Source: a virus
Virus record (IMG/VR): IMGVR_UViG_3300008261_003175
DNA length: 64,000 bases
Direction: 5' to 3' (one strand)
The translations under genes and the position numbers were made by a program. The notes beneath the pieces were generated by a model. It saw only the letters and a program-made list of their open reading frames with translations, was not told where the DNA came from and ran no database searches. Of this stretch, positions 10,835-62,278 are shown piece by piece. How positions within the stretch are numbered: position 1 is the first letter of the stretch; each line of letters starts with the position of its first letter.

Positions 10835-13800
10835 ATGAGTTTATTACCAATAAAATATAGCGATATACCGGGCAGGTCTCCATCGCTTTTGTTGATAGGA
10901 GAATTAGCGGTAAATATCGCAGATGGCAATCTCTATTACGGATCGAAAAACGGAGTGAGACTATTCTCTTTTAGTGGAAGTTCGTCTACCAATACAGGCA
11001 GTCTGTTGCTAACAGCGTCCGTTAATTTAAATACAATAACTTTTACAAAAGGCAACGGATCTACGTTTGCCATTACTGTAGACACCGGATCTGGATCTCC
11101 AGGAAGCGGAACAGTTACTTCTATAGCTACAGCAGGACTTATATCGGGAGGGACTATTACCACTACTGGTACGATCAGCACTTCTATGAATACAAATAGA
11201 CTTGTAGGTAGAAGCACAGCTGGTGTAGGTATTATGGAAGAGATTACGATCGGATCCGGACTTTCTCTTTCAGGAGGAACTCTTAGTGCTACTGGAGGTG
11301 GAGGAACATTTCCTTTTGATGGTTCTGCTGTAATTACAGGTTCCTTACTTGTATCCGGTAGTGGAATAACTATTACCGGATCACTTAATATATCAGGTTC
11401 ATTAAATGCAACATCAAGTTGGGCTATTAATGCTTTAACTTCATCAAATATACAAGGTGGAGCTGCAAATTATATACCATTATGGAAAACTGATACTAGT
11501 TTAACTAGTAGTTTTTTATATCAAAATAATAATGTATTAACAGCTCGATCTAATAGTATAGATAATGGATTAATGATTGATTTTGGAAGTAATCAATATA
11601 GAATAGGAGGTTTTGGTGCTTCTCCCTTTAATTACATAGGTATTGATCCTAATTTTACACAATTATTTGGCAGTAATGTAATCCTAGATGCATCTTCAGC
11701 TACTTTAGAAATATCCTCAGGGTTAATAAAAACAACATCTGGAGCATCAAATATTAAAGGATTAAAACTTGATTTTAATAATAACGTATATAGTTTAGGA
11801 GATACTGATGATTTAAATACTCTTACAAAAATAAAAGTAGACGAAAGTAGTCAATCTGTTATTATAACTGGCTCACTTACTACAACAGGATCAGTATTTT
11901 TTCCGTTTTTAATAGAACAATCTCAAAATAATGTTGTATTAATAGATACATCAACTGGCCAGCTTTATTACACAGCATCATCAGCAATTGGAGGAGGTGG
12001 AAGTGGAACTCCAGGTGGAACAGATCAAACAATTCAATTTAATTCAGCATCTGTATTTAGCGGCTCTGCTAAATTAAAATACGACTATACTAACAGCAAT
12101 ATAATATTAACAGGTTCATTATTAGTAACTCAATCATATATCTCTAAAGTAGATTATGTTGAGTTTACATCAGCATCAGATCAACTCACAGCAGTAGGTA
12201 GATTAGGATGGAATAATAGTGATGGTACATTAAGTTTAGGATTAAAAGGTGGTAATGTTGATCTTTTAGTTGGTGAAACTGAAGTAGCATATGTTTATAA
12301 TGCTGAGGCAACAACATTAACAAAAGGTGAAGTTGTTTTTATAACAGGATCACAAGGTAATAGAGTATCCGTTAAAAGAGCAGCAGCCTCCTCTGATCCA
12401 GTCTCTGCAGGTACATTAGGATTTGTAGCGGAACCTATAATTTCAGGTCAAACTGGATTTGTAATAACAAGCGGAGTAATAAATAAACTAGATACTTCTG
12501 CTTATACAGAAGGAGCACTAGTATATTTAAGTAGCTCAGCAGGTCAGTATACAACAGTTAAACCAGTATCCCCAATCCACGAAGTACGTCTTGGATATAT
12601 ACAAAGATCACATCCCACAGTAGGTTCAATCTACGTTAAAGTAGATAATGGATATGAAATAGGAGAACTACATGATGTATTAGATAATACAACATCTTCA
12701 TCCTATGGAGATTTACTTGTTAAAAGTGGTAGTTTATGGATTAATTCAAAACAACTAACTGGATCATACGGATTAACAGGTAGTTTAACTGTAACTCAAA
12801 ACATATCAGCAAGCTCATTTACAGGATCATTGTTTGGTACAGCAAGTTGGGCACACAGCGCTTCTAATGCTATAAATGCACAAACAGCATCCTATGTTAC
12901 TTCATCAAATGTATTTGGTCCTTATGGTTCAAATTCAATATTAAGTGCATCATTTGCTTTAACAGCATCAATAGCAACAACAGCTATAACATCATCATAC
13001 CCAATATCAGTAACAGGTAGTGGTACTACTTTATATTCTGTAAGTCCTCTTGCTAATCCTAATTTTGGTGAGGGTGCTACACATTCTATATTTTTTGGAC
13101 AAGAAGCAGGATATTTAGTATCAGACGCATATTATGCAAACTTTATAGGCAGACAAGCAGGATATACAGCATCATATGCTGAAGATTCAAATTTCTTAGG
13201 ATATAGAGCAGGATTTAATGCTACTTATGCTAATCGCTCAAATTTCTTAGGATCATCAGTTGGAAGTAATGCTACCTATGCATCTCAATCTAATTTCTTT
13301 GGTCATCAAGCCGGATTTGAAGCATATACTGCATCTAACTCAAATTTCTTAGGTTACCAAGCAGGATTTCAAGCCTATTTATCAAATGACTCAACATTTA
13401 TGGGTTATCGGGCAGGTTATTTAGCTACCACTGCAAGCGATTCAGTTTTTATAGGATACGAAACAGGCAGACAAGCCTCAAGAGCTAATAATTCTATTTT
13501 TATAGGCAGCGGATCAGGAAATGGGGCTACTAATTCTAATAATTCTGTTTTTTTAGGTTCAACAGCAGGAAAAAATGCTAGTAGCGCTCATTCTATTTTT
13601 ATAGGAACTAATGCAGGTAGTAGCACTAGTGGAGGTAATTCTATTATTATAGGTCGAGATGCAGGAAGTACTATAAGTAGTACATCAAATTCTATTTTAA
13701 TAGGTTATCAAGCTGGTAAAAGAATAACAGGCACCGGCATTGGTAATAATAACATTATTATTGGTACAAACATCACTTTACCAAACGGAACTAGTAATGC

Positions 13801-16800
13801 TGTTAATATAGGAGGCGCATTATATATAACAGGAATTTATGGAAATACAACAGGAGACCCACTAACTGGCTCATACATCGATGTACTAACACAACCTAAA
13901 GTAGGTATAGGCACATTTTCTCCATCCGCGTTATTACATATTAATCAAATAGAGAGAGGTAATCCTCAATTTATCGTCTCTAATAGGGAAAGCGGAAGCG
14001 TATTTAGAGTAGATGAAAATTCAATATTTGCACCTCAATTAAGATCTTTACCTGTAGGATCGTACGAGATAGTAGTAAGAGATACAGCCACAGGTCAATT
14101 ATACGTAGTTTCGTCTAGCAATTTTATAACCGGAAGCGGAAGCGGAACTACTCCTCCAGGCGGTGCAGATACTCAAATACAATATAATAACGGTGGAGCT
14201 TTCGGCGGAAGTAGTTATTTTATATATAATTACGTAAATAATAGTTTAAAACAAGGAAATACAATAACAGCACGAGGAGCGTATTCTCACGGAGAAGGAT
14301 GCAATACTTTTGTAGGACAATTTGGATACCATGCCTCTGATGTAACATCAGGAGTAATAACGCTTGATGTTGCGTATGGAGATGTTAAAAATACAGGGGT
14401 CGCCGAAGCTGATGGATTCATAATATTAGACGACACAGCGTATTCTAATACTTACGGTGTTAGAGCATTTACTATAGCAAGTGTTGCAGGTGGACCGCCT
14501 ACTACAATAACATTAAATAATGCGGGAATAACCACATCAGAGGCGATAATATATATACCTGGAAGAGCTGAACCTCTAAGAGCAGATATACTTTTACCTG
14601 GTGATTGCGCTCACTCTGAAGGATCGAGCTCTATAGCGTCTGGAAATGCTTCTCATGCCGCTGGTATAGAAACAAATGCATTCGGCAATTATTCATACGC
14701 AGGCGGCCAAGGAACAGTGGCAACATCTGTGGGTCAAACCGTAGTAGGTAAATACAATTTACCAAATTCTGATATCGTCAGTTACGGTAACTCTTTTATA
14801 ATTGGTAAAGGAACAAGTACAAGTGCGAGAACTAATATGTTTGAAGCTGTTCCTTCAGCAGATACTCTTACAATATCTGCATCTTATGTTGCAATTAAAG
14901 GCATACCTAGATTTGATGCACAACCTTTTCTATTGGCTTATGAAACTTCATCTGGTCAGATATACTTCTCAACAGCATCTCTTGTTGGTGGTGGTAGTAC
15001 TACAACAACATTATCACGAATAACAACAGGTTCAGTTACGGCTAGTACAAATGTAGGTACAGGAAATGTATTTACTGTTACAAGTGCTAGTATAGCAGAA
15101 TTTGCTGTAGCAGGAACTGGCGTTACAATAGGTAACGTTATAACAGATCAACATACCGTAACAGGATCTCTATCAATATCAGGCTCCACTACAATAACAG
15201 GTTCATTAAGAGTAAGAGACGGCATAACAGGATCATTGTTTGGTACTGCTAGTTGGGCTACTAATGCTTTAACTGCATCTTATGTCTTAGCAAGTAATAT
15301 TGCAGGAGACATATCAAGAATAGCAATAGGATCGGTAACTGCAAGCGTAGGAAATAGCTCAGGAAATATATTTAATATTATTAGTGGTAGTAGTACGTTT
15401 GTGAATATTACTAATAATGGCGATGTTGGCATAGGAGCCCCAGCAACTTCTACCACTAAATTACAAATATCATCTAGTACTAATCTTTCATTGGGTATAG
15501 TAAGATCTACGACAAATGCAGGTTATTTATCTTTAGATAATGCTACGTTTGCTATAGCTGTTAATCGTAATCCTGTAGGTTCTTTTATAGATACGTCAAA
15601 AGCATCATCTCAAATTAATTTATTTACAGGAGTATCTGATTCGAATATCAAATTTTATACGACTACTGCAAATAATACATTACCTAGTGAAAGAATGATT
15701 ATTACTAAAGACGGTAATGTCGGTATTAATAGAACGGCTCCGATATATACACTAGATGTAAGTGGTAGTATTAATTTTATTGGAGATACTATCGTAACAG
15801 GATCGTTTACGGTAATAACAGGTAGCTCCGTAGAATTTCAAGTTATAAATACTGGAGTTAGGATAGGTAATATAATTACCGATACTCATACTGTAACAGG
15901 TAGCTTCAATATATCAGGCTCAACAACTATAAGAGGAAATACAAGAATAAGCGGCAGTGTATTCATCAGCGGTTCATTAATACCAAACGTTAATGGAACT
16001 CAAACTTCAAGCTTTAATCTAGGATCTCCAACAGCAGCATGGAAAGCGCTTTATGTAGCAACAAGAAGTATTCACTTTGTTGATGTTGATGGAATTGAAG
16101 TAGCAAATATATCTGTAGAACCAAATGGTGGTGGTGGGAGTTTTATTAATATAGGCGATATTAGAACCTATGACGAAAATGAGTTAGCTTTTAGAGGTAT
16201 TGAAGTTGATAGACAACAAGGATTTGTTTTTTTAGGAGATTATAATAAAACTTTACCATTTCCAATATCACTTAATTTAATACCGGATGCTAATCAAAAA
16301 ATTTATACTGAAGGTTCTTCATCAGGTGAAAGTGGATTTAAAGTAGATTTTGTAAATGATCCATTCCCTAGAGTATGGTTAGGAGATTTTAATGGAACTG
16401 GAAAAAGTACATCTTTAATAATAAATGACTTTTTCCAAACAATAACTACTAGCGGTAGTTTTATAATGTCTGGTTCGTTAAATGTAACTCAAGGTATAAC
16501 AGGATCATTACAAGGAACATCATCCTTTGCTTTAACAGCATCTCATGTTTTAAATGGTGGAACATCAACAATTCCAACACAAATAGTAACTGGTTCAGTT
16601 ACAGCTAGTGTAACACTAACACAATTTAGCGTTACAAGTGGTAGTATTACTGAATTTAGTGTAGCAGGAACAGGAGTTACAATAGGTAATACGGCATCAG
16701 ATATACATAAAGTAACTGGTTCATTTAATATAAGTGGTTCAACAACAGTAAATGGTCAATTATTTCTTTCTAGATATACTAGTGCAACCGCTTTTACAAG

Positions 16801-17272
16801 CTCAACAACAACAGCTAGTTTAGCCGTTGATACAGATGGTAATGTAGTAACCTCTCCATTTTATGATAGTGGAGAAAAAACATATACTGGAACAGTAACA
16901 TGGACAGGAACGACTGCCCCATCAGGAGCAACTACTCACTCCTATCATTGGAGTCGAGTTGGAAATCTAGTAACAGTAAGGTTAAATTTAGCATACGCAG
17001 TAGCAGGAAACTCTTTAACATTAGCGTCTGCTACATTACCTACGGATTGTCCAATTCCTATTTCTCCTAGTGGCGTAACAGCGGCTAGTGAAGCAATATC
17101 TTATGGAACAGGTATTTTAGTAACTGTAAAAACAGTTCCAGCTTTTACTACTGTAGGCGCTGGTATGTCTGCATTAAGAAGAAATTCTGGAAATAATGGA
17201 TACGATATAGCTATTATAAGAGCGTCAGCAAATTACCAATATGGTTACGCAACAATACAATATTATGCATAA
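10835..17272 (+). CDS. long tail fibre / receptor-binding protein (2145 aa)
   Basis: N-terminal GELAVNIADGNLYYG fibre motif; Gly/Ser/Thr-rich ITGSL repeats; beta-helix repeats; mosaic modules. Confidence 0.85.
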   Translation: MSLLPIKYSDIPGRSPSLLLIGELAVNIADGNLYYGSKNGVRLFSFSGSSSTNTGSLLLTASVNLNTITFTKGNGSTFAITVDTGSGSPGSGTVTSIATAGLISGGTITTTGTISTSMNTNRLVGRSTAGVGIMEEITIGSGLSLSGGTLSATGGGGTFPFDGSAVITGSLLVSGSGITITGSLNISGSLNATSSWAINALTSSNIQGGAANYIPLWKTDTSLTSSFLYQNNNVLTARSNSIDNGLMIDFGSNQYRIGGFGASPFNYIGIDPNFTQLFGSNVILDASSATLEISSGLIKTTSGASNIKGLKLDFNNNVYSLGDTDDLNTLTKIKVDESSQSVIITGSLTTTGSVFFPFLIEQSQNNVVLIDTSTGQLYYTASSAIGGGGSGTPGGTDQTIQFNSASVFSGSAKLKYDYTNSNIILTGSLLVTQSYISKVDYVEFTSASDQLTAVGRLGWNNSDGTLSLGLKGGNVDLLVGETEVAYVYNAEATTLTKGEVVFITGSQGNRVSVKRAAASSDPVSAGTLGFVAEPIISGQTGFVITSGVINKLDTSAYTEGALVYLSSSAGQYTTVKPVSPIHEVRLGYIQRSHPTVGSIYVKVDNGYEIGELHDVLDNTTSSSYGDLLVKSGSLWINSKQLTGSYGLTGSLTVTQNISASSFTGSLFGTASWAHSASNAINAQTASYVTSSNVFGPYGSNSILSASFALTASIATTAITSSYPISVTGSGTTLYSVSPLANPNFGEGATHSIFFGQEAGYLVSDAYYANFIGRQAGYTASYAEDSNFLGYRAGFNATYANRSNFLGSSVGSNATYASQSNFFGHQAGFEAYTASNSNFLGYQAGFQAYLSNDSTFMGYRAGYLATTASDSVFIGYETGRQASRANNSIFIGSGSGNGATNSNNSVFLGSTAGKNASSAHSIFIGTNAGSSTSGGNSIIIGRDAGSTISSTSNSILIGYQAGKRITGTGIGNNNIIIGTNITLPNGTSNAVNIGGALYITGIYGNTTGDPLTGSYIDVLTQPKVGIGTFSPSALLHINQIERGNPQFIVSNRESGSVFRVDENSIFAPQLRSLPVGSYEIVVRDTATGQLYVVSSSNFITGSGSGTTPPGGADTQIQYNNGGAFGGSSYFIYNYVNNSLKQGNTITARGAYSHGEGCNTFVGQFGYHASDVTSGVITLDVAYGDVKNTGVAEADGFIILDDTAYSNTYGVRAFTIASVAGGPPTTITLNNAGITTSEAIIYIPGRAEPLRADILLPGDCAHSEGSSSIASGNASHAAGIETNAFGNYSYAGGQGTVATSVGQTVVGKYNLPNSDIVSYGNSFIIGKGTSTSARTNMFEAVPSADTLTISASYVAIKGIPRFDAQPFLLAYETSSGQIYFSTASLVGGGSTTTTLSRITTGSVTASTNVGTGNVFTVTSASIAEFAVAGTGVTIGNVITDQHTVTGSLSISGSTTITGSLRVRDGITGSLFGTASWATNALTASYVLASNIAGDISRIAIGSVTASVGNSSGNIFNIISGSSTFVNITNNGDVGIGAPATSTTKLQISSSTNLSLGIVRSTTNAGYLSLDNATFAIAVNRNPVGSFIDTSKASSQINLFTGVSDSNIKFYTTTANNTLPSERMIITKDGNVGINRTAPIYTLDVSGSINFIGDTIVTGSFTVITGSSVEFQVINTGVRIGNIITDTHTVTGSFNISGSTTIRGNTRISGSVFISGSLIPNVNGTQTSSFNLGSPTAAWKALYVATRSIHFVDVDGIEVANISVEPNGGGGSFINIGDIRTYDENELAFRGIEVDRQQGFVFLGDYNKTLPFPISLNLIPDANQKIYTEGSSSGESGFKVDFVNDPFPRVWLGDFNGTGKSTSLIINDFFQTITTSGSFIMSGSLNVTQGITGSLQGTSSFALTASHVLNGGTSTIPTQIVTGSVTASVTLTQFSVTSGSITEFSVAGTGVTIGNTASDIHKVTGSFNISGSTTVNGQLFLSRYTSATAFTSSTTTASLAVDTDGNVVTSPFYDSGEKTYTGTVTWTGTTAPSGATTHSYHWSRVGNLVTVRLNLAYAVAGNSLTLASATLPTDCPIPISPSGVTAASEAISYGTGILVTVKTVPAFTTVGAGMSALRRNSGNNGYDIAIIRASANYQYGYATIQYYA
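13082..13772 (+). repeat. about 17-aa (51-bp) beta-helix tandem repeats within the fibre
   Basis: Units such as SNFLGYRAG, SNFFGHQAG, SNFLGYQAG, SVFIGYETG, SIFIGSGSG. Confidence 0.8.
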
Positions 17273-21253: not shown

Positions 21254-23011
21254 ATGGCTGAAACATTAATATCACCAGGAGTTTTCCTAACGGAAAACGA
21301 TATGAGTCAAATAACTCAAGGTCCAATAGCAGCAGGAGCTGCGTTGTTAGGTCCCACAGTTACAGGTCCAGTAAACATACCAACTCAAGTTACTTCGTAT
21401 TCTGAATATAAAGCGATATTCGGAGCCGCATTCGTCTCTGGAGGCACTTCTCAAGAGTATTTAACGAGCATGGCGGCTTTGAATTACTTTGAACAAGGCG
21501 GAGATTCTCTTCTTGTAACCAGAGTAGTTTCTGGAACTTATACAGCTGCAACGGCTTCTATTGGAAACTTTGCAGGCACTACGTCTTTTCAACTAGAGGC
21601 TTTATCATTTGGTGTAATAATGAATAACGCAACAGCTTCAGCGCCCTCTGGATTATTACAATCTGGATCAACGTCTAACATTCGTTGGGAAGTAGTAAGT
21701 TCAAACTCAGGATCAGGTATATTCAGCTTAATCATAAGAAGAGGAGACGATTATAACAATAGTAAAACTATTTTAGAAACGTGGAATGGACTTTCTTTAG
21801 ATCCAAATCAACCAAACTATGTATCATATATCATAGGAGACCAAACTCAAACAGTACAAACTGACGAATTTGGCAATAGTTATTTACAATATAGCGGATC
21901 ATACACAAATAAATCAAAATACGTTAGAGTAAGAGCAGTTAACACTCCAATGCCTAATTATTTTAATACAGCAGGAGTTGTAAATAGCGCTTATACGGCT
22001 TCTATGCCAAGAGTAGGTAGCGGATCTTTAAATGGAGGTTTCGCAACGGCTACAGGAAATATTTGGGGTTGTTTTAATCAAGCTGCTTTAAATTTATATG
22101 AAGCAGTACCTAATACCACATCAACAGTTAGTACAACCACAACAAATATTCAAGGCGTATTCCCTGATTCTTACACTGTTCCACTTAGTTTGTTATCGAA
22201 TCAAGACGCTTACGATTTTAACGTGATATATGCACCAGGTTTAACCATGGTTAATGCAGCTTCGACTGTAAATAGCATAATTACTTTAGCTCAAGATAGA
22301 GGCGATTGTATCGCAGTGGTTGATACAGTTGGATACGGTCAAAGCATGACACAAGCGACTACTCAAGCGCAATCGTACGATAATTCGTATGCTGCAACAT
22401 ATTGGCCGTGGGTGCAACTTAGAAGTCGAGAAACGGGAAAACTTAATTTTGTTCCTCCTTCTACATTGATCCCAGCTATTTACGAATATAACGATAAAGT
22501 ATCTGCAGAATGGTTCGCACCAGCGGGTCTCAACAGAGGAGGTCTTTCGACCGTATTGCAACCAGAAAGAAGGTTGAGCGTTAATGATAGAAACTTCTTG
22601 TACGCAGGAAAAGTAAATCCAATCGCTACATTCCCTGGAGTTGGAACGGTTGTATACGGTCAAAAAACTTTGCAATCAAAAGCATCAGCTCTTGATAGAG
22701 TGAACGTTAGAAGATTGTTGATTTCTCTTAAGAGGTATATAAAACAAATATCAAATAACCTTGTATTCGAACCAAATACAACTGTAACTAGAAATAAATT
22801 CTTGAATCAAGTTAATCCATATTTGGAATTTGTACAACAAAAGCAAGGTCTTTACGCATTCCAAGTTGTAATGGACGAAACAAATAATACTCCTGACGTA
22901 ATAGACAGAAATCAATTGGTAGGAGCTATATATTTACAGCCTACAAGGACTGCAGAATTCATTCAACTAGACTTTAACATTTTGCCAACTGGAGCATCAT
23001 TTGGACAATAA
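21254..23011 (+). CDS. gp18: contractile tail sheath protein, copy 1
   Basis: SPGV N-terminus, YWPW, WFAPAGLNRG, VNPIATFPG, GQKTL, DRVNVRRL, FEPN. Confidence 0.95.
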   Translation: MAETLISPGVFLTENDMSQITQGPIAAGAALLGPTVTGPVNIPTQVTSYSEYKAIFGAAFVSGGTSQEYLTSMAALNYFEQGGDSLLVTRVVSGTYTAATASIGNFAGTTSFQLEALSFGVIMNNATASAPSGLLQSGSTSNIRWEVVSSNSGSGIFSLIIRRGDDYNNSKTILETWNGLSLDPNQPNYVSYIIGDQTQTVQTDEFGNSYLQYSGSYTNKSKYVRVRAVNTPMPNYFNTAGVVNSAYTASMPRVGSGSLNGGFATATGNIWGCFNQAALNLYEAVPNTTSTVSTTTTNIQGVFPDSYTVPLSLLSNQDAYDFNVIYAPGLTMVNAASTVNSIITLAQDRGDCIAVVDTVGYGQSMTQATTQAQSYDNSYAATYWPWVQLRSRETGKLNFVPPSTLIPAIYEYNDKVSAEWFAPAGLNRGGLSTVLQPERRLSVNDRNFLYAGKVNPIATFPGVGTVVYGQKTLQSKASALDRVNVRRLLISLKRYIKQISNNLVFEPNTTVTRNKFLNQVNPYLEFVQQKQGLYAFQVVMDETNNTPDVIDRNQLVGAIYLQPTRTAEFIQLDFNILPTGASFGQ

Positions 23012-23029: not shown

Positions 23030-25126
23030 ATGGCTGAAACATTAATATCACCAGGAGTTTTCCTAACGGAAAACGATATGAGCCAAATAACTCAAGGTCC
23101 AATAGCGGCAGGAGCCGCTCTTATAGGACCGACAGTATTTGGTCCGGTGAATATACCCACAGTAGTAACCTCTTATTCAGAATATAAAGCTCTATTTGGA
23201 ACTGCGTTCATATCAGGTGGCACTAACTATGAGTATCTAACTAGTATAGCAGCTTTAAATTATTTCGAACAAGGAGGAACATCTTTACTTATAACAAGAG
23301 TTGTATCAGGATCTTATACTCCAGCAATTGCTGAAATTCCATGCGGTATTGCTGGAAAATATGCAAATGCTTCTGCAACTCCTACATTCGATGATGGTGC
23401 GTTTTTTCAATTAACTGGCTCAAGCCTGGGTAGATTTTATGTGACTTCTAGTCGAACGCAAATAGACTCAGCTCCGAACTACTACGTTGTAACTGGAAGT
23501 ACAGCTACTTTAACTGTACAAAATATAGCAAGCAAAATAAATTCGCTATCGTCTATTTTTAATATAATAGCTACAGGCAGTTCTACTAATCTATTTTTAA
23601 CATCGAGTTTAATAGGAACAATAGGAAATAGCTTTAGATTTGTAACTGCGTCTAGCGCGACTAATTTAGTTGGTGGTGTAAATCCTAGTGCTAGTTTTGT
23701 GTTAGAAACTGTATCTGTAGGACAAGGTATGGATAATTGGGCAGGAACAGGTAGTATATCTAATCAGATATTGCCTAGCGGATCTAATATGAACATTCGT
23801 TGGGAAGTAGTAAGTTCAAACTCTGGATCTGGTGTATTTAGTTTGATTATAAGAAGAGGAGACGACTACAGTAATAGCAAAACTATTTTAGAAACATGGA
23901 ATGGTCTTTCTTTGGATCCAAACCAGCCTAACTATATAGCGGCTGTGATAGGAGATCAAACTCGAACAGTGCAGACTGACGAGTTCGGTAATAGCTATTT
24001 GCAGTTGAGTGGAAATTATAGAAACGTTTCTAGATACGTTAGAGTGAAAAGCGTAAATTATCCAACTCCTAACTATTTTGATGGTTCAGGAACTGTACAA
24101 TCAAATTATACGGCTTCTATGCCTTTGGTCGGATTGGGTTTAGCAAATGGAGCATTTTCAGGATCTCTTGGACCTATATATGGATGCTATGAAAAAGCAG
24201 CATTAAATATGTTTGAAGCAATACCAACAGTTACATCTGTTGGAACTAACGCATCAACTAATATACAAGGCATATCGGAAACAGATTATTCTACAGCTAT
24301 AAGCTTGTTATCGAATCAAGACGCTTACGATTTTAACGTCTTATTTGCGCCTGGATTAAATTCACAGAACGCAACTTCTACTATATCGAGCTTGATAAGT
24401 TTATCTCAAACAAGAGGAGATAATATTTCTATAGTAGATATGACTTCATACGGTCAAAGCATGACACAGGCCACTATTCAAGCTCAATCATACGATAATT
24501 CCTATGCAGCAGTATACTGGCCGTGGGTACAAATCAGAAGCAGAGAAACAGGCAAATTAAATTTCGTTCCAGCTTCTACTCTTATACCTGCAATTTATGA
24601 ATATAATGATAAAGTTTCTGCTGAGTGGTTTGCTCCTGCTGGATCAAATAGAGGAAAAATATCTATAGCAATCAAACCAGAGAGATCGTTAACTTTGAAT
24701 GATAGAAATTTCTTGTACTCAGGAAAAGTAAATCCTATAGCAATATTTCCAACAGACGGAGTGGTAGTATATGGTCAAAAAACCCTACAAGCAAAAGCTT
24801 CTGCTCTAGATAGAGTAAATGTAAGAAGATTGTTAATCTCTTTGAAGAGAGCAATAAAGCAAATATCAGAAAATTTGGTATTCGAACCAAATACAACTGT
24901 AACTAGAAATAAATTCTTGAACCAGGTTAATCCCTATTTAGAATACGTTCAACAAAAACAGGGGTTGTATTCTTTTCAAGTTGTAATGGACGAAACAAAT
25001 AATACTCCTGATGTAATCGATAGGAATCAATTAGTGGGAGCTATATATTTACAACCTACGAAAGTGGCAGAATTTGTACAACTAGATTTTAATATCTTGC
25101 CTACAGGCGCAACATTTGGACAATAA
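23030..25126 (+). CDS. gp18: contractile tail sheath protein, copy 2 (with extra inserted domain)
   Basis: Same sheath motifs; first 31 aa identical to copy 1; about 110 aa longer. Confidence 0.95.
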   Translation: MAETLISPGVFLTENDMSQITQGPIAAGAALIGPTVFGPVNIPTVVTSYSEYKALFGTAFISGGTNYEYLTSIAALNYFEQGGTSLLITRVVSGSYTPAIAEIPCGIAGKYANASATPTFDDGAFFQLTGSSLGRFYVTSSRTQIDSAPNYYVVTGSTATLTVQNIASKINSLSSIFNIIATGSSTNLFLTSSLIGTIGNSFRFVTASSATNLVGGVNPSASFVLETVSVGQGMDNWAGTGSISNQILPSGSNMNIRWEVVSSNSGSGVFSLIIRRGDDYSNSKTILETWNGLSLDPNQPNYIAAVIGDQTRTVQTDEFGNSYLQLSGNYRNVSRYVRVKSVNYPTPNYFDGSGTVQSNYTASMPLVGLGLANGAFSGSLGPIYGCYEKAALNMFEAIPTVTSVGTNASTNIQGISETDYSTAISLLSNQDAYDFNVLFAPGLNSQNATSTISSLISLSQTRGDNISIVDMTSYGQSMTQATIQAQSYDNSYAAVYWPWVQIRSRETGKLNFVPASTLIPAIYEYNDKVSAEWFAPAGSNRGKISIAIKPERSLTLNDRNFLYSGKVNPIAIFPTDGVVVYGQKTLQAKASALDRVNVRRLLISLKRAIKQISENLVFEPNTTVTRNKFLNQVNPYLEYVQQKQGLYSFQVVMDETNNTPDVIDRNQLVGAIYLQPTKVAEFVQLDFNILPTGATFGQ

Positions 25127-50574: not shown

Positions 50575-52197
50575 ATGTCAACACAGAATTTATCAGGAAA
50601 AGAATTAAAAGAAAAGTTGCTAACTGGAATCCAGAAGTTGAACCAATCGGTTTCTTCTACGCTTGGACCAGGAGGTCGTACAGTTCTAATCAAAGAACAA
50701 ACAGGTGAAGTTAAAGTTACAAAGGACGGTGTTTCCGTTGCTAAAGCGTTCCACAAGTTGGAAGACGAAGTAGAAGATTTGGGGGCACAGCTTGTAAAGC
50801 AAGTAAGTATCAAATCCGCAAACGAAGCGGGAGACGGTACGACCACTTCTACTATCTTAGCGACCAAAATGGTCGAAGAGGGTTTGACTCTTATTCACCA
50901 AGGAGTTAACGCAGTGTCTGTTAAAAAGCAGATCGATGCAGCAGTAGAAAAAGCAGTAAAGAAAATAAAAGATATGGCAATTGATGTCTCTACAGAAGAG
51001 CAAATCAAACAAGTTGCTACAATCTCAGGTAATAACGATACTGAAATTGGAGAACTTATCGCTACAGCAATCGAAAAGGTTGGCCGCGAAGGAGTTGTTA
51101 CTATCGAAGAATCAAAAACTGGAGAAACTCAATTGGAAGTTGTAGAAGGTATGCAGTTTGACAGAGGTTACAAATCTCCATACTTCACTACCAACAACAC
51201 AACCATGCAAGCAGTATTGGAAGATCCTTTCATTTTCTTGTATGATGGTAGAATCTCTACAGCTCAAGAGTTGTTGCAAGTGTTAACCAAAGCAAACTCA
51301 GAAAACAAACCAGTACTTATCGTTGCTGAAGACATCGGTGATGAAGCCTTAGCAACTTTGATTGTAAACAAGATGAGAGGCATTGTTCAAGTCTGCGCTG
51401 TTAAAGCACCGGATTTTGGAGAGAGAAAAACTCTTATCATGGAAGATATTGCTATCCTTACTGGTGGACAAGTACTTTCAAAAGACAAAGGACACAAGCT
51501 TGACAAGATCGCACCAAATCAACTTGGCGAGTTCTTGGGAAGAGCTAGAATGGTTACAGTTAGCAAAGATCAAACCACCATCATCGATGGCAAAGGAGAC
51601 GAAATTTCTATTACTAATCGTTCTAACGAAATCAAAGAACAGATCGAAAAAGCAACCTCTTTCTACGAGAGAGAAAAGTTACAAGAAAGACTTGGTAAGT
51701 TGATCGGTGGAGTTGCTATCATCTCTGTAGGCGGAGATTCTGATATCGAAATCAAAGAGAAAAAAGATCGTGTTGAAGATGCACTTTTTGCAACTAAAGC
51801 AGCTCTTTCCGATGGCATCGTACCTGGCGGTGGAATTGTACTCTACGATGTGCTTGATTGCTCTGAAGACAACAACGACAAAGGATTGCAGATCGTTAGT
51901 ATGGCATGCGCAGCTCCTTTCATCAAGATTCTTGAGAATGCAGGAAACGATAAGTGGTACGCAGTTGCTCACGAGATTCACACTTCTAAATTGAAGAACG
52001 CTACCTATGATGCTAAGAACGGCAAAGTTGTTGACGCATTCGAAGCCGGTATCATTGATCCAGCTAAGGTTGTTATCACGGCTCTTAAAAATGCAGCTTC
52101 TGTTGCAGGAACTATCCTAACCACAGAATCGGTTGTGTTTGAGAAAGCTGACAAGAAAGCTGACGATGGAGGAATGAATCCAATGATGGGTATGTAA
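50575..52197 (+). CDS. groL: chaperonin GroEL
   Basis: TLGPGG, TKDGVSVA, AGDGTTT, EGMQFDRGYKSPYF, KAPDFGERK, IIDPAKV. Confidence 0.97.
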   Translation: MSTQNLSGKELKEKLLTGIQKLNQSVSSTLGPGGRTVLIKEQTGEVKVTKDGVSVAKAFHKLEDEVEDLGAQLVKQVSIKSANEAGDGTTTSTILATKMVEEGLTLIHQGVNAVSVKKQIDAAVEKAVKKIKDMAIDVSTEEQIKQVATISGNNDTEIGELIATAIEKVGREGVVTIEESKTGETQLEVVEGMQFDRGYKSPYFTTNNTTMQAVLEDPFIFLYDGRISTAQELLQVLTKANSENKPVLIVAEDIGDEALATLIVNKMRGIVQVCAVKAPDFGERKTLIMEDIAILTGGQVLSKDKGHKLDKIAPNQLGEFLGRARMVTVSKDQTTIIDGKGDEISITNRSNEIKEQIEKATSFYEREKLQERLGKLIGGVAIISVGGDSDIEIKEKKDRVEDALFATKAALSDGIVPGGGIVLYDVLDCSEDNNDKGLQIVSMACAAPFIKILENAGNDKWYAVAHEIHTSKLKNATYDAKNGKVVDAFEAGIIDPAKVVITALKNAASVAGTILTTESVVFEKADKKADDGGMNPMMGM

Positions 52198-57399: not shown

Positions 57400-57522
57400 A
57401 TCGGAGTGGCGGAATTGACAAATACCGGAAATTAGTCAAGCGTTAGACGTATAGCAGATTTCGTGCTGCTAGGGATTAGGAGTAATCCTCCCGTGGAGGT
57501 GCAAACCCTCTCTCCGATACCA
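57400..57522 (+). ncRNA. aberrant class-II tRNA-like RNA (pseudo-tRNA)
   Basis: Acceptor stem ATCGGAG/CTCCGAT + A-CCA; TGGCGGAA..TAGACG D-arm with inserted hairpin; long variable arm; T-arm GGAGG-TGCAAAC-CCTCT; no U33. Confidence 0.7.
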
Positions 57523-57525
57523 CAT

Positions 57526-57597
57526 TGCGAGATAGAGCAGTGGTAGCTCGGTTGGCTCATAACCAACAGGCCGAAGGTTCAATTCCTTCTCTCGCTA
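57526..57597 (+). tRNA. tRNA-Met(CAT), initiator-like
   Basis: Full cloverleaf; GTTGG-CTCATAA-CCAAC; 1:72 mismatch and A11:U24; CCA not encoded. Confidence 0.9.
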
Positions 57598-57602
57598 CAA
57601 TT

Positions 57603-58030: not shown

Positions 58031-58443
58031 GGGCCTGTTTTTGGCATTTGATCCGGATGCAAATGGTAATATCACACGCAGAGGCATGGTTCTAATCCTC
58101 TTTAATACTTGAACAAAACTATAAACGACAACAAAAAATCTCGTCAAGAAATCGGTGCATCTATTATCAACATGGCTTTTGCTAATGTAGCTGTAGCTGC
58201 ATAAGATCTAAGGATCTTTTCTTTCCCTGACAACTTGGGTGAAACAGTAAGTTGTAATCAGGTTTTCTTAGTTGGACCAGTTAATCAACTGAGTGGTGGA
58301 GCGTTCTAACTTTGGTTAGTTCCCTAACTACGGTGCAAATAACGACGGGGGTTCTCCCTCTTGATCGTCATTAGTACTAAGCGTGTGAGACGTTGATATT
58401 ATTGTTTCTTTCGGAGACACGAGTTCGACTCTCGTCAGGTCCA
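58031..58443 (+). ncRNA. ssrA: tmRNA
   Basis: GGGCCTG/CAGGTCC-A acceptor with G3-U70; T-arm ACGAG-TTCGACT-CTCGT; tag frame 58127..58204 ending AVAA-stop. Confidence 0.9.
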
Positions 58444-58537
58444 CAGAAAAATTAAAAAAGGTGATCTTATACCAAAGGACTGGGTAAAAGGTCGAAACAT
58501 GAAATAAGTCCATATTTTTTAACAAACACAAACAATT

Positions 58538-59068
58538 ATGAAAAAAACAGTATTGCTATTAGCAGTAATTTTGGGATCACTCTCATTGACAACTGTAAGT
58601 GCTCAAAAAAATTCCGCAATTCTAAGTGGAACGGTATCTTACACAAAAGCAACTGATGTTAAAGCATCTTATGGTATCAATCCTTTGATAGGATATTTCG
58701 TAACAAACAAAGTTGCAGTAGGCGTATTAGGTGGATTCGAAAAGATCGATTCTGAAAATGAATCAACATCAGTTGGAGTATTCGGCAGATGCCATTTTTT
58801 GAACATCGGTAAAAATTGCGTAGTATTCTCACAAGTAGACGTAACTACAAATTCAGTAACTGAAGCTAACGTAAAAACAAAGTCTACTAATGCAAATTTA
58901 GGATTTGGTGCAAATTACATGATTACAAAGAAACTAGATCTTACTATGCAAGTTGCTGATTTGGCGAACTACGAAAATTCAAACTCTAAATCAGTTTTCA
59001 CATTGGGTTTTGCTGGGATCAATAATCCTTTCTCGGCTTCAAAGTTCGGTGTGATTTATAAATTCTAA
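58538..59068 (+). CDS. outer-membrane beta-barrel protein (small, about 8-stranded)
   Basis: Sec signal ending VSA|Q; alternating amphipathic strands; C-terminal GVIYKF beta-signal. Confidence 0.8.
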   Translation: MKKTVLLLAVILGSLSLTTVSAQKNSAILSGTVSYTKATDVKASYGINPLIGYFVTNKVAVGVLGGFEKIDSENESTSVGVFGRCHFLNIGKNCVVFSQVDVTTNSVTEANVKTKSTNANLGFGANYMITKKLDLTMQVADLANYENSNSKSVFTLGFAGINNPFSASKFGVIYKF

Positions 59069-59115: not shown

Positions 59116-59142
59116 GGCAGTCAGCAATGGCTGCCTTTTTTT
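59116..59142 (+). terminator. intrinsic terminator
   Basis: GGCAGTCA-GCAA-TGGCTGCC plus T7. Confidence 0.88.
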
Positions 59143-59226
59143 ATGTTTACGCATATTTATACTTGAACATATTAATCAGTTATAGAAATTGTTGCGTATT
59201 AATAAACAATTTTAAATAACAGTAGT

Positions 59227-59502
59227 ATGACTTTTAAAAAATGGATTATCCAACTCTTCAAAGATGAAAGAGGATCGGTATCAATCAAACCAGTAGTAGC
59301 ATTCATCGGCGCAATGTTCTTATGCGTAACGATGATAATCAATTCATTCTCCCACGAAGATTTCAAACCAGCAGATGCTTTAGTTGAAGCAGTAATGATT
59401 ATTACTTGCATTGGATTAGGTGCTGACAGTATTGACAAGTTCTCTCACAAAAAAGTTGCGGAAACAACAACTCCAGAAGAACCTCAACCCCCAGTAGAAT
59501 AA
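59227..59502 (+). CDS. two-TM membrane protein, holin/antiholin candidate
   Basis: Two hydrophobic helices; first gene of the unit that ends in the endolysin. Confidence 0.5.
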   Translation: MTFKKWIIQLFKDERGSVSIKPVVAFIGAMFLCVTMIINSFSHEDFKPADALVEAVMIITCIGLGADSIDKFSHKKVAETTTPEEPQPPVE

Positions 59503-59503
59503 A

Positions 59504-59803
59504 ATGGCAAAGAAATCAACAGTAGAGACAGTTGCAGGTACTGTAAAGCCGCCAATCTCTTTTAAAGAGTTCGCGAAGGAACCTGTAAAGGGCTTAATGT
59601 TTATATGCATTATAGCAGTAGGTTATCTATACGTTGATATTAAAATGACTAACTCAGCAACACAAAAGCAATTAAATGAAAAAATTACTGTACTGGAAGC
59701 AAAAGTTGATCAACTTACTGACCAACTTAGAAAATCAGACAGTACGCTTTCAGCGGCAGCTTCAAAAATAGCAGTCCTTCAAGAACTAGGTAAAATCAAA
59801 TAA
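59504..59803 (+). CDS. single-TM coiled-coil protein, inner-membrane spanin candidate
   Basis: TM GLMFICIIAVGYLYV followed by a long heptad region. Confidence 0.45.
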   Translation: MAKKSTVETVAGTVKPPISFKEFAKEPVKGLMFICIIAVGYLYVDIKMTNSATQKQLNEKITVLEAKVDQLTDQLRKSDSTLSAAASKIAVLQELGKIK

Positions 59804-59804
59804 A

Positions 59805-60923
59805 ATGAAAAACCTATCAAAAGAGGAGCTGTTAAGTAGAATGGAGGCGATAAACAGGAGCAACGCCCTTATCTACTTTGATCTTAACGGAAAAATTTTA
59901 GGCGTTAATTCGATTTTTCTGACAGCGATGGGGTATGGAGCAGAGGAGCACGATGAAATTATCGGTAAACACCACAGTATTTTTGTATGTGAAAACTATG
60001 CAAGATCTGTAGAATACGAAAAGTTCTGGGATATACTAAGAAGCGGTAAGTACTATAGTGGAGAATTTGAAAGAAGAAAGAGAGACGGTAGCCTCATCAG
60101 CCTACAAGCGACCTACAATCCTATTTTTGATGATAGCGGTAAGATTACTAAAATAATGAAAGTAGCTACTGACATCACTGCGATTGTGGATAGTAAAAGA
60201 CAATTAGAAGCAATTAACAGAAGTACCGCAAGTATTACTTTTAATGCTGGTGGGTTTATTTTAGATGCGAATGATATGTTTTTAGAAGCAATGGGATATA
60301 AATCTAACGAGAGAAATCAAATAATAGGAAAGCATCATAGCATTTTTGTAAATTACGAATATTCAAAATCAGATGACTACATTAAGTTTTGGAAAAGATT
60401 GAACAGCGGAAAGTTTTTTAATGGAATAGTCGAAAGAAGGAAAATAGATGGTTCTATTATTTATTTACAAGCAACCTACAACCCTATCTTTGATAGCAAA
60501 GGAAACGTTACAAGTATAATTAAAATCGCTACTGACGTCACTGAAGCAATAAATAGTAAAAAAGAAATTGATTCCCTATCAGCGAATTTGCAAGTAGAGT
60601 TAGATAATTCAAAGAAGCTCAAGGATTCAATCGAAATAGAAAAGAATGCCGCTTTAAACGATTTAGATGTAATTATAAAAAAAGGACAAAGCGAATTAAT
60701 AAAAGTGATTGTTAAATGTGCTTTGGCGGTAATTATAGGAGTAGGTGTTGTTACAACTATGCTGTATTGGATGGCAATGGCTACTGGTAAAGAGACGCAG
60801 ATAATTGGATCAACTTGGAGTAACATGTTTAGTGTATTACTAACAAATGCCTTTTCAATAGTTGGTACAATCATGGGCATTAAGTATGCAACACAAGACG
60901 ATAAAAAAGATAAAACAAAATAA
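59805..60923 (+). CDS. tandem PAS-PAC sensor protein with C-terminal two-TM anchor
   Basis: Two repeats of EAINRS...N..FL.AMGY...IIGKHHSIFV...FW..L.SGK...G..ERRK.DGS.I.LQATYNPIFD..G...K.ATD; coiled coil; two TM helices; charged tail. Confidence 0.88.
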   Translation: MKNLSKEELLSRMEAINRSNALIYFDLNGKILGVNSIFLTAMGYGAEEHDEIIGKHHSIFVCENYARSVEYEKFWDILRSGKYYSGEFERRKRDGSLISLQATYNPIFDDSGKITKIMKVATDITAIVDSKRQLEAINRSTASITFNAGGFILDANDMFLEAMGYKSNERNQIIGKHHSIFVNYEYSKSDDYIKFWKRLNSGKFFNGIVERRKIDGSIIYLQATYNPIFDSKGNVTSIIKIATDVTEAINSKKEIDSLSANLQVELDNSKKLKDSIEIEKNAALNDLDVIIKKGQSELIKVIVKCALAVIIGVGVVTTMLYWMAMATGKETQIIGSTWSNMFSVLLTNAFSIVGTIMGIKYATQDDKKDKTK

Positions 60924-60924
60924 T

Positions 60925-61320
60925 ATGAAATTAACAAATGTATTACTAGCTTGTTTGATAGCAGGATGCACAAAAAACTCAGAAGTGCCTACCTCAGTGA
61001 TAACTACAACTGATAGTTTAATTGCTGTGAGTGATAGTATTGCAGCTAACGCAGAGCGCTCAGGTCAAATACTTGATTCAGTAACAACAGCTACAACTGA
61101 AAAGGTAACAGATAATGTTCAGGTATTAACCAATACTATTACAAATTACGAGACTAAAATTAAGGCTGCTACTAAAACAATAACTGTAGAGAAGATCATA
61201 CATGATACAGTTTACATAGAAACTAAAAAGAGCTTCTGGGGTAAGACTAAAACAAGTGTAACTACAAAATCAGATAGCACTCTTAATCAATTAGAGGTTA
61301 TAGATACAACACAACAATAA
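60925..61320 (+). CDS. lipoprotein, outer-membrane spanin candidate
   Basis: Start re-assigned to 60925: MKLTNVLLACLIAGC lipobox; Thr-rich with many D-S/T-x motifs. Confidence 0.65.
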   Translation: MKLTNVLLACLIAGCTKNSEVPTSVITTTDSLIAVSDSIAANAERSGQILDSVTTATTEKVTDNVQVLTNTITNYETKIKAATKTITVEKIIHDTVYIETKKSFWGKTKTSVTTKSDSTLNQLEVIDTTQQ

Positions 61321-61323
61321 TTT

Positions 61324-61656
61324 ATGTTCAGTTCATCTTCAGTTGCGATAATGATAGCAGGGGTTGCGATATCACTACTCTTTATATGTGCTGCATTATT
61401 CTTCGTTTATAAGTTATTTGCTAATAATGCTCAAGAAGTATTAGTTAGATTCATACTACTCATCTTTACAGCATTGGTTGGAGTATGGGTAGTAGATAAA
61501 GTAATAGCTTTTAAGGTCAATTTACTATCAGAACAACAAGATGGACAACTATTTGATTTAATCAAGACACTCATACTGATGATATTCAGTTATTATTTCG
61601 GAACTAAAAACACAAACAAAGATGAATGTACAGAAACTAAAGGGACACATTCCTGA
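61324..61656 (+). CDS. three-TM holin candidate
   Basis: Three hydrophobic helices, IFSYYFG, charged tail; overlaps the endolysin start. Confidence 0.55.
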   Translation: MFSSSSVAIMIAGVAISLLFICAALFFVYKLFANNAQEVLVRFILLIFTALVGVWVVDKVIAFKVNLLSEQQDGQLFDLIKTLILMIFSYYFGTKNTNKDECTETKGTHS

Positions 61657-62221
61657 CACAGTTATAGCTCAGATACCTGACGTTATGGCTAAATTTGAAA
61701 TCAACACGCCACTTCGCCTAGCCCACTTCCTAGCACAGTGCGGACACGAATCAGGTGGATTCAAAGTTGTAAACGAAAACCTAAACTACAGTGCTAAGGG
61801 TTTGTTAGGGGTATTTAAAAAGTACTTCCCTACAGGAGCTAAAGCAGCATTGTATGAGCGCAAGCCAGAAAAGATCGCTAACCTAGTTTATGGTGGTAGA
61901 ATGGGTAACGGACCTGAAACATCAGGTGAAGGATTCAAATTCCGTGGCCGTGGTTATATCCAATTAACAGGCAAAGACAACTACAAAGCATTTGATGCAG
62001 TTGTACCTGAGAACTTACTAGAGACTCCGGAGCTAGTTGCTACGAAGTATCCACTACTATCTGCCGCTTGGTTCTTCCATAAGAACGGCTTACATAAGAT
62101 TGCTGATGGTGGAGCTACAGATATTGTGGTGACTAAGGTAACAAAAAGAGTAAACGGCGGAACAATTGGTTTAGCCGATAGAATTAAGCACTTCAAAGAA
62201 TATCACGCTTTATTAGCATAA
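61622..62221 (+). CDS. GH19 (chitinase-like) endolysin
   Basis: RLAHFLAQCGHESGGF, ENLNYS, FRGRGYIQLTGKDNY, SAAWFF, VNGG..GL.DR; no signal peptide. Confidence 0.93.
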   Translation: MNVQKLKGHIPDTVIAQIPDVMAKFEINTPLRLAHFLAQCGHESGGFKVVNENLNYSAKGLLGVFKKYFPTGAKAALYERKPEKIANLVYGGRMGNGPETSGEGFKFRGRGYIQLTGKDNYKAFDAVVPENLLETPELVATKYPLLSAAWFFHKNGLHKIADGGATDIVVTKVTKRVNGGTIGLADRIKHFKEYHALLA

Positions 62222-62246
62222 AATTAATCAATGTTCGTAAAAAATT

Positions 62247-62278
62247 AGGAGACCAAATAAATAAAGGTCTCCTTTTTT
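62247..62278 (+). terminator. intrinsic terminator after the endolysin
   Basis: AGGAGACC...GGTCTCCT plus T-run. Confidence 0.75.

Follow-up and report, generated by a model that had tools for sequence, protein, structure and literature searches.

A tandem-PAS protein with a membrane hairpin in a phage lysis cassette, a candidate sensor-gated regulator of lysis timing

Overview

The lysis cassette of an uncultured virus (IMG/VR record IMGVR_UViG_3300008261_003175), analyzed here as a single 64,000-nucleotide stretch that is referred to as the window, carries a gene (59805-60923, + strand) for a protein of 372 amino acids (aa) in which a pair of PAS domains is joined through a coiled-coil stalk to a membrane hairpin of two helices. 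On balance, this PAS-hairpin protein (P0121) is probably an accessory, sensor-gated regulator of lysis timing and not the primary holin, as suggested by its gene neighborhood, its domain content and the pattern of its conservation. A first-pass annotation, made from the letters of the window alone, had proposed a holin or antiholin whose triggering depends on the environment; the part that placed the protein in a lysis cassette was borne out, while its identity as a holin or antiholin was not. The same annotation knew of no described lysis system of this kind, and none was found in the literature searched or among 50,697 deposited phage genomes. The literature searched also held nothing relevant on a holin or antiholin that carries a PAS or other sensor domain.

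Linkage of the hairpin gene to endolysin genes

Linkage was examined in 87 loci, including the window. An endolysin gene is found within 3 kb of the hairpin gene in 69 of these, and in 27 loci the gap between the two genes, on either side, is 50 nt or less. There were 82 endolysin genes in the 452 kb lying within 3 kb of the hairpin gene, compared with one in the 578 kb lying at 3-10 kb (binomial p 2e-28, a value that is indicative only, as the loci come from related phages and are not independent). The linked endolysins belong to four families, namely GH19, Phage_lysozyme (3.8e-43), Peptidase_M15_3 (8.6e-22) and PG_binding_1 lysins, and the hairpin gene lies before them, after them or at a distance of one to three genes, in roughly twenty arrangements. 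Since the linkage survives the exchange of the enzyme type, shared ancestry alone would hardly explain it. The synteny with endolysins that had been suggested as a check for homologues combining PAS domains with two transmembrane (TM) helices is therefore present, in 69 of the 87 loci and with four enzyme families, and it supports the view that the gene belongs functionally to lysis cassettes. A Phage_holin_4_1 protein is encoded in 17 of the loci, and a lipoprotein with a C-terminal TM segment, the layout of a unimolecular spanin, in 12.

Distribution and conservation of the hairpin module

Residues 248-372 served as the query for an exhaustive HMMER search of 1.84 billion representative proteins, which returned 102 proteins. 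The N-terminal parts that precede the coiled coil and hairpin in this set are a PAS pair, a single PAS domain, a GAF domain (2.5e-17), an N-domain without a name that spans about 70 residues, or almost nothing, as in the 97-aa protein P0160, which consists only of the coiled coil and hairpin. The gene for the GAF-fused hairpin is followed by genes for a GH19 enzyme and a glucosaminidase. In two loci, the hairpin protein is the product of the last gene of a three-gene kinase-receiver-hairpin unit that lies beside one or two endolysin genes. The first of these (L145, 6224-10260, - strand) encodes a GAF-PAS-PAS-HATPase_c kinase, a stand-alone receiver and an unfused hairpin protein, and the second (L090, 239-4263, + strand) has a 299-aa HATPase_c protein, a receiver and, again, an unfused hairpin protein. 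The second PAS domain of the L145 kinase shares 52% identity with the first PAS domain (PAS-A) of the window protein (6e-39), and the best viral structural match of the window protein model is a phage histidine kinase (2.5e-27). Because of these two resemblances, the PAS-hairpin protein looks like a one-piece version of the kinase-receiver-hairpin relay. The unnamed N-domain of roughly 70 aa in the L145 and L090 hairpin proteins might be where the receiver docks.

When the hairpin was compared with Pfam and PHROG, no family reached threshold. There was a weak match to phrog_1544 (0.0042 for P0149 and 0.094 for the window protein), and the Pfam family Phage_holin_9 appeared below threshold in 4 of 20 hairpins, with a best E-value of 0.029, which is a lead only. 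No match was obtained when the hairpin protein P0131 was used in a tblastn search of the 50,697 deposited phage genomes, and no hairpin relatives were found in that collection. Among 185,579 species genomes there were only eight hairpin matches, all on short contigs of metagenome-assembled genomes (MAGs) that had been assigned to eight phyla, and these are taken to be mis-binned phage DNA. The nearest Atlas clusters are 100% viral. Judged by these searches, the hairpin appears to be restricted to phages, with no cellular or cultured-phage relative found. Close homologues in metagenomes form more than 120 clusters (at 90% identity) that share at least 80% identity, and there are 158 loci in IMG/VR.

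The 57 distinct PAS-hairpin proteins show no insertions or deletions between residues 48 and 367, and all 20 columns of the second TM helix (TM2) are invariant. Mean pairwise identity among them is 0.86 for PAS-A, 0.79 for the second PAS domain (PAS-B), 0.72 for the stalk, 0.78 for the first TM helix (TM1), 0.88 for the loop and 1.00 for TM2. In the hairpin family at large, the loop and TM2 retain ten invariant positions, among them an Asn in mid-membrane and a Gly-x-x-x-Gly pair. The constancy of the stalk length and of the TM2 helix would fit a mechanically coupled switch.

The PAS pair and the predicted structure

Within the 372-aa protein, Pfam detected PAS_9 (9.4e-25) and PAS_3 (1.3e-23), with two domains each, and no other domain. 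This agrees with the earlier statement that there is no kinase, methyl-accepting chemotaxis protein (MCP), GGDEF or DNA-binding output, and the MCP signalling domain PF00015 gave no match at E-values up to 0.1. Since Pfam recognised no kinase, DNA-binding or enzymatic output in the window protein, it is not a standard one- or two-component system. The label 'methyl-accepting chemotaxis protein' that the Joint Genome Institute (JGI) gives to many homologues can be traced to the PAS pair, which is common to true MCPs. The nearest cellular proteins are the PAS-PAS units of bacterial MCPs and GGDEF-EAL proteins (40–49% identity), and the pair appears clearly to have been taken from cellular signalling proteins. 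The sole strong match in the phage collection, MT836939.1 (42% identity, labelled Bacteriophage sp.), is probably not phage DNA and was rejected as a phage relative; it is a high-GC, bacterial-looking contig (locus L001) that carries a 675-aa PAS-PAS-MCP protein and GGDEF-EAL genes.

The nearest solved proteins by sequence are MmoS (3EWK, 5e-12), the PAS1 domain of NifL (2GJ3, 5e-8) and Aer (8DIK, 1.1e-5), followed by LOV2, and a Foldseek search of the model also placed MmoS first (3EWK, 1.5e-16), with DosP, LOV-PAS, NifL and FixL behind it. Together with the MCP and GGDEF-EAL relatives, the MmoS, NifL and Aer structures support the chemoreceptor or redox type of PAS repeat that had been recognised on first inspection. 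Residue W75 in PAS-A aligns with the Trp of the flavin adenine dinucleotide (FAD) pocket of NifL, and PAS-B retains the same FW motif. FAD has been predicted for the PAS pairs of BdlA and McpS (PMC8694187). The haem PAS proteins DosP and FixL are also among the fold matches. As every one of the closest relatives by sequence is a flavin PAS domain, flavin is a better guess for the cofactor than haem, and the pair is probably of the flavin type; of the two cofactors originally offered, haem or flavin, the former is thus not favored.

The AlphaFold2 model of the protein has a mean predicted local distance difference test (pLDDT) score of 89, and shows two PAS folds with block means of 81–97 over residues 11–250. 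PAS-A corresponds to residues 6–123 (59820-60173, + strand; block-mean pLDDT 86–97) and is predicted to be of the flavin type. PAS-B, recognised both by Pfam and in the model, corresponds to residues 125–244 (60177-60536, + strand), with the Aer PAS match (1.1e-5) covering residues 140–247. Next in the model comes one continuous helix of residues 246–327 (60540-60785, + strand), in which a cytoplasmic coiled-coil stalk runs straight into TM1, and after a turn of four residues there is a second helix of residues 332–371 (60798-60920, + strand) that comprises TM2 and a lysine-rich C-tail. Lysine-rich stretches precede TM1 and follow TM2, and by the positive-inside rule both termini are predicted to be cytoplasmic (N-in/C-in).

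Genes and boundaries of the lysis cassette

The cassette (59227-62221) consists of six tightly packed + strand genes flanked by two terminator-like hairpins, and all six of the open reading frames (ORFs) listed in the first-pass annotation are present. The first gene, A91 (59227-59502), encodes a 91-aa holin candidate with two TM segments and an acidic, proline-containing C-tail. It is followed by B99 (59504-59803), the 99-aa product of which has one TM segment and then a coiled coil, an i-spanin-like layout, and matched nothing in Pfam beyond weak coiled-coil hits. The PAS-hairpin gene comes next, and then a gene (60925-61320) for a 131-aa lipoprotein with the lipobox LIAGC, which stands in an o-spanin-like position and has no significant family match in Pfam or PHROG. 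For this lipoprotein, the gene and lipobox proposed earlier stand, and the start is moved from 60922 to the ATG at 60925. The fifth gene, E110 (61324-61656), encodes a 110-aa protein with a charged C-tail, two strong hydrophobic segments and another, weaker one, so that the membrane protein described as having three TM segments is better given two to three. E110 overlaps the start of the endolysin gene by 35 nt, and would be the best-placed canonical holin candidate in the window. The endolysin itself (61622-62221, 199 aa) is a GH19 enzyme (phrog_181, 1.8e-67; Pfam Glyco_hydro_19, 2.9e-6), the N-terminus of which has no hydrophobic segment, signal or signal-anchor-release (SAR) segment.

At each of the junctions A91/B99, B99/PAS and PAS/lipoprotein, a single base separates the stop codon from the next ATG. 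The 5' boundary of the cassette is a terminator-like hairpin (59116-59142, + strand) with an 8-bp stem that includes five GC pairs and has a T7 tail, and which ends the preceding gene for a putative outer-membrane protein. The 3' boundary is formed by a second such hairpin (62247-62278, + strand), with an 8-bp GC-rich stem, an 11-nt loop and a T run; it was read from the sequence itself and was not called by the terminator scan, which covers loops of up to 8 nt. With a hairpin on either side, one transcription unit for all six genes is plausible. The earlier proposal of a single unit running from 59153 to 62247 keeps its terminator, to which the upstream hairpin can be added, and loses its promoter motif at 59153; CATATTTATAC occurs four times in the window at up to one mismatch, compared with 2.9 expected, and a scan for sigma-70-type promoters found fewer sites than in shuffled sequence.

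A related cassette, L092, carries A91, a close relative of B99, a lipoprotein gene, a membrane protein gene and a similar GH19 gene, and has no PAS gene; its lipoprotein gene starts one base past the B99 stop codon. The PAS-hairpin gene therefore appears to be optional in related cassettes. Relatives of B99 are found in cassettes both with and without the PAS gene, and relatives of E110 in 10 of the 87 loci. A91, which has no match in Pfam or PHROG, is the most frequent neighbor of the PAS-hairpin gene (52 of 87 loci), and was considered as an obligatory partner of the hairpin. This was rejected because the A91 family is far more widespread, with at least 482 loci in IMG/VR, mostly without the hairpin gene. 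A sample of 80 A91 loci (L092-L171), collected with a search profile built from the closer A91 homologues, has the hairpin gene in 12; in several of these 80 loci A91 lies directly before a GH19 gene, and a recognisable endolysin is found near A91 in only about a third. Prediction of a complex between the hairpin and A91 gave a score of 0.00 without controls, and weighs neither way. Most loci, the window included, seem to carry other, better-placed putative holins.

Proposed mechanism and alternative explanations

As a regulator of lysis timing, the protein would read a cytoplasmic signal with its PAS pair, most likely the redox or energy state by means of a flavin, and the stalk would pass the resulting conformational change into TM1. 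The hairpin would then alter the state of the inner membrane in such a way that holin firing is advanced or delayed. Because the hairpin is nearly invariant while the adjacent holin candidates vary (A91, E110, Phage_holin_4_1 or none), an action independent of the holin would be favored over binding to one holin family, and could take the form of self-assembly into a small depolarising lesion that triggers any holin. A more far-reaching version, which we offer tentatively and regard as having less than an even chance, is that the hairpin is a phage-only signalling output, and that sensors gate its assembly into such a lesion, providing a universal lysis trigger tied to the redox or energy state of the host. 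The sensors might, on this tentative scheme, be PAS or GAF domains fused directly to the hairpin, or a phage kinase whose signal passes through a receiver. Such a trigger would be independent of the holin type, because every canonical holin fires upon a drop in proton-motive force.

Several points weigh against a regulatory role in lysis. There are 18 loci of the 87 with no endolysin within 3 kb, and in some of these (L002, L006, L018 and L023) the gene is situated among replication genes. The loci are those of related phages, and both the counts and the binomial p-value overstate their independence. Accessory genes that are expressed late often insert into lysis regions, and a function cannot be deduced from linkage by itself. 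In L027, L060, L024 and L054, no further plausible ORF for a small membrane protein lies within 3 kb of the hairpin gene, and in L027 and L060 a soluble endolysin gene directly follows it; three of these loci (L027, L060 and L024), where the hairpin protein is the sole membrane protein nearby, fit a true holin better than a regulator.

The four loci just mentioned are among the evidence for the first alternative, in which the protein is the primary holin, a hole former of the class II type with a PAS state that directly sets the time of hairpin oligomerisation and so of the release of the soluble GH19 endolysin. It would share with class II holins the two-helix, N-in/C-in layout and the lysine-rich C-tail, its gene immediately precedes that of a soluble endolysin in many loci (the 27 with gaps of up to 50 nt include either side), short forms made of coiled coil and hairpin occur, such as P0160, and Phage_holin_9 gives its sub-threshold lead. 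This explanation is nonetheless unlikely, as the gene can be missing from an otherwise complete cassette (L092), most loci have other holin candidates, with Phage_holin_4_1 in 17, and the classic holin slot of the window, overlapping the endolysin start, is occupied by E110. No holin family of Pfam or PHROG reaches threshold, and the length of 372 aa compares with about 60–150 aa for class II holins. Known holins evolve fast, and the absolute invariance of TM2 across divergent phages is unlike them. The two TM helices and the charged tail of the class II topology assigned at first are present, with a predicted N-in/C-in orientation; the small size, the requirement for endolysin release and the family membership of such holins are not. 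Antiholins, which bind and inhibit their cognate holin until a signal arrives, are defined by function and have no sequence signature.

The other alternative, a late-expressed accessory membrane sensor that has no part in lysis timing (serving, for example, to modulate host respiration or the envelope, or in superinfection exclusion) and that is found in the lysis region only because this region tolerates insertions and is transcribed late, is improbable: although the gene is optional and mobile, with 80–87% identical proteins in very different surroundings that include replication modules, lacks a nearby endolysin in the 18 loci noted above, and has a PAS pair of cellular signalling origin, hitch-hiking would not hold it at 2 kb or less from endolysins of four non-homologous types across some twenty arrangements, there are almost no endolysin genes at 3–10 kb, the unfused hairpin protein sits between a phage receiver and an endolysin, and the GAF-fused hairpin also precedes GH19 and glucosaminidase.

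Comparison with known systems

The pinholin S68 and antiholin S71 of phage 21 are proteins of about 70 aa that have no sensor and pair with SAR endolysins, and in S68 one helix controls whether the other helix can oligomerise. This is the kind of switch that the connection between stalk and TM1 could drive in the PAS-hairpin protein, which resembles S68 and the class II holins in its two TM helices, N-in/C-in layout, charged C-tail and a gene beside the endolysin gene, but differs from S68 in its length of 372 aa, its association with soluble endolysins and the lack of a holin family match. The PAS pair has its best sequence or fold matches in MmoS, NifL, Aer and BdlA/McpS, with which it shares the arrangement of tandem PAS domains followed by a signalling helix. 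The outputs of those proteins are a kinase, NifA binding or an MCP domain, whereas here the output is a membrane hairpin. The LytSR system of Staphylococcus is cellular, is tied to membrane energisation and acts via the transcription of separate genes. Like LytSR-LrgAB/CidAB (PMC4830213), the system described here would tie signal transduction to membrane proteins that resemble holins or antiholins, but the phage protein is fused to its sensor or directly relayed and would not work through transcription.

In the lysis inhibition of T4, holin T acts with the antiholins RI and RIII, of which RI is the periplasmic sensor of superinfection and binds a single, specific holin at that holin's periplasmic domain (PMC11413866, PMC8385771). 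The PAS-hairpin protein would be similar to RI and RIII, and to TeaA and ArrA of ICP1 (PMC7182436), in being an accessory phage protein that makes holin timing dependent on a signal and is dispensable for lysis itself. It has no sequence relation to the lysis-control proteins of T4 and ICP1, and in contrast to them the sensor is a cytoplasmic PAS pair (or a GAF domain or kinase-receiver relay) that is covalently joined to its own membrane hairpin. A soluble cytoplasmic regulator, gp143 of phiKZ, binds the cytoplasmic domain of a class III holin (PMC12894885). It too is the product of an extra gene in the lysis cassette of a jumbo phage and acts on holin timing from the cytoplasmic side, as is proposed for the PAS-hairpin protein; gp143 is soluble and has no sensor domains, whereas the window protein is predicted to be membrane-embedded and has recognised ones.

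Phage context and neighboring genes

The window contig represents a large, uncultured, contractile-tailed phage of the myovirus type, and encodes a major head protein, two sheath proteins, a tape measure protein, ribonucleotide reductase, DNA polymerase and GroEL. The low GC content, a short match between the endolysin DNA and Flavobacterium phages, and the Lake Mendota MAG contigs give a hint of a freshwater Bacteroidota host. The two sheath genes (21254-23011 and 23030-25126, + strand) are adjacent paralogues, both assigned to phrog_23 at about 1e-69 each. Also within the structural region is an ORF of 2145 aa (10835-17272, + strand) that had no PHROG match at an E-value of 1e-5. The phage-encoded GroEL-type chaperonin (50575-52197, + strand) matches phrog_5725 with an E-value of 4.5e-149.

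A full-length transfer-messenger RNA (tmRNA) gene (58031-58446, + strand) precedes the lysis cassette by 0.8 kb (Rfam RF00023, 75.5 bits, E-value 5.4e-29), and ARAGORN predicts a tag peptide that ends in AVAA. An Rfam-confirmed tRNA-Met (CAT) lies at 57526-57597 (+ strand), inside 57424-57598, and directly before it ARAGORN flagged an unusual tRNA of 99 nt whose anticodon has four bases; this call lacks Rfam support, and may be either spurious or an interrupted tRNA. The gene that shortly precedes the cassette (58538-59068, + strand) encodes a 176-aa secreted protein with a weak match to the outer-membrane beta-barrel family OMP_b-brl (E-value 8e-4), and has its own terminator.

Significance

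Lysis timing sets burst size and phage fitness. To our knowledge, the only well-understood case in which this timing is adjusted by a signal is the lysis inhibition of the T-even phages, with ICP1 as a second example, and in these systems it is superinfection that is sensed, from the periplasm. We know of no studied phage that tunes the timing of its burst by an intracellular sensor joined to a membrane hairpin. Signal-dependent control of lysis is thus already known, and what is seen here is its construction from an undescribed membrane module. If the proposed role is correct, the PAS-hairpin protein would be the first protein of a lysis cassette with classical intracellular sensor domains, and phages would be wiring PAS domains, GAF domains and whole kinase-receiver relays to a dedicated membrane effector. 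In that event, the roughly 90 residues of such a switch, a sensor-gated membrane device whose input domains can be exchanged, would also make it a compact tool for controlling lysis. Members of the family are widespread among environmental phages, and could shape the timing and the amount of host biomass release in lakes.

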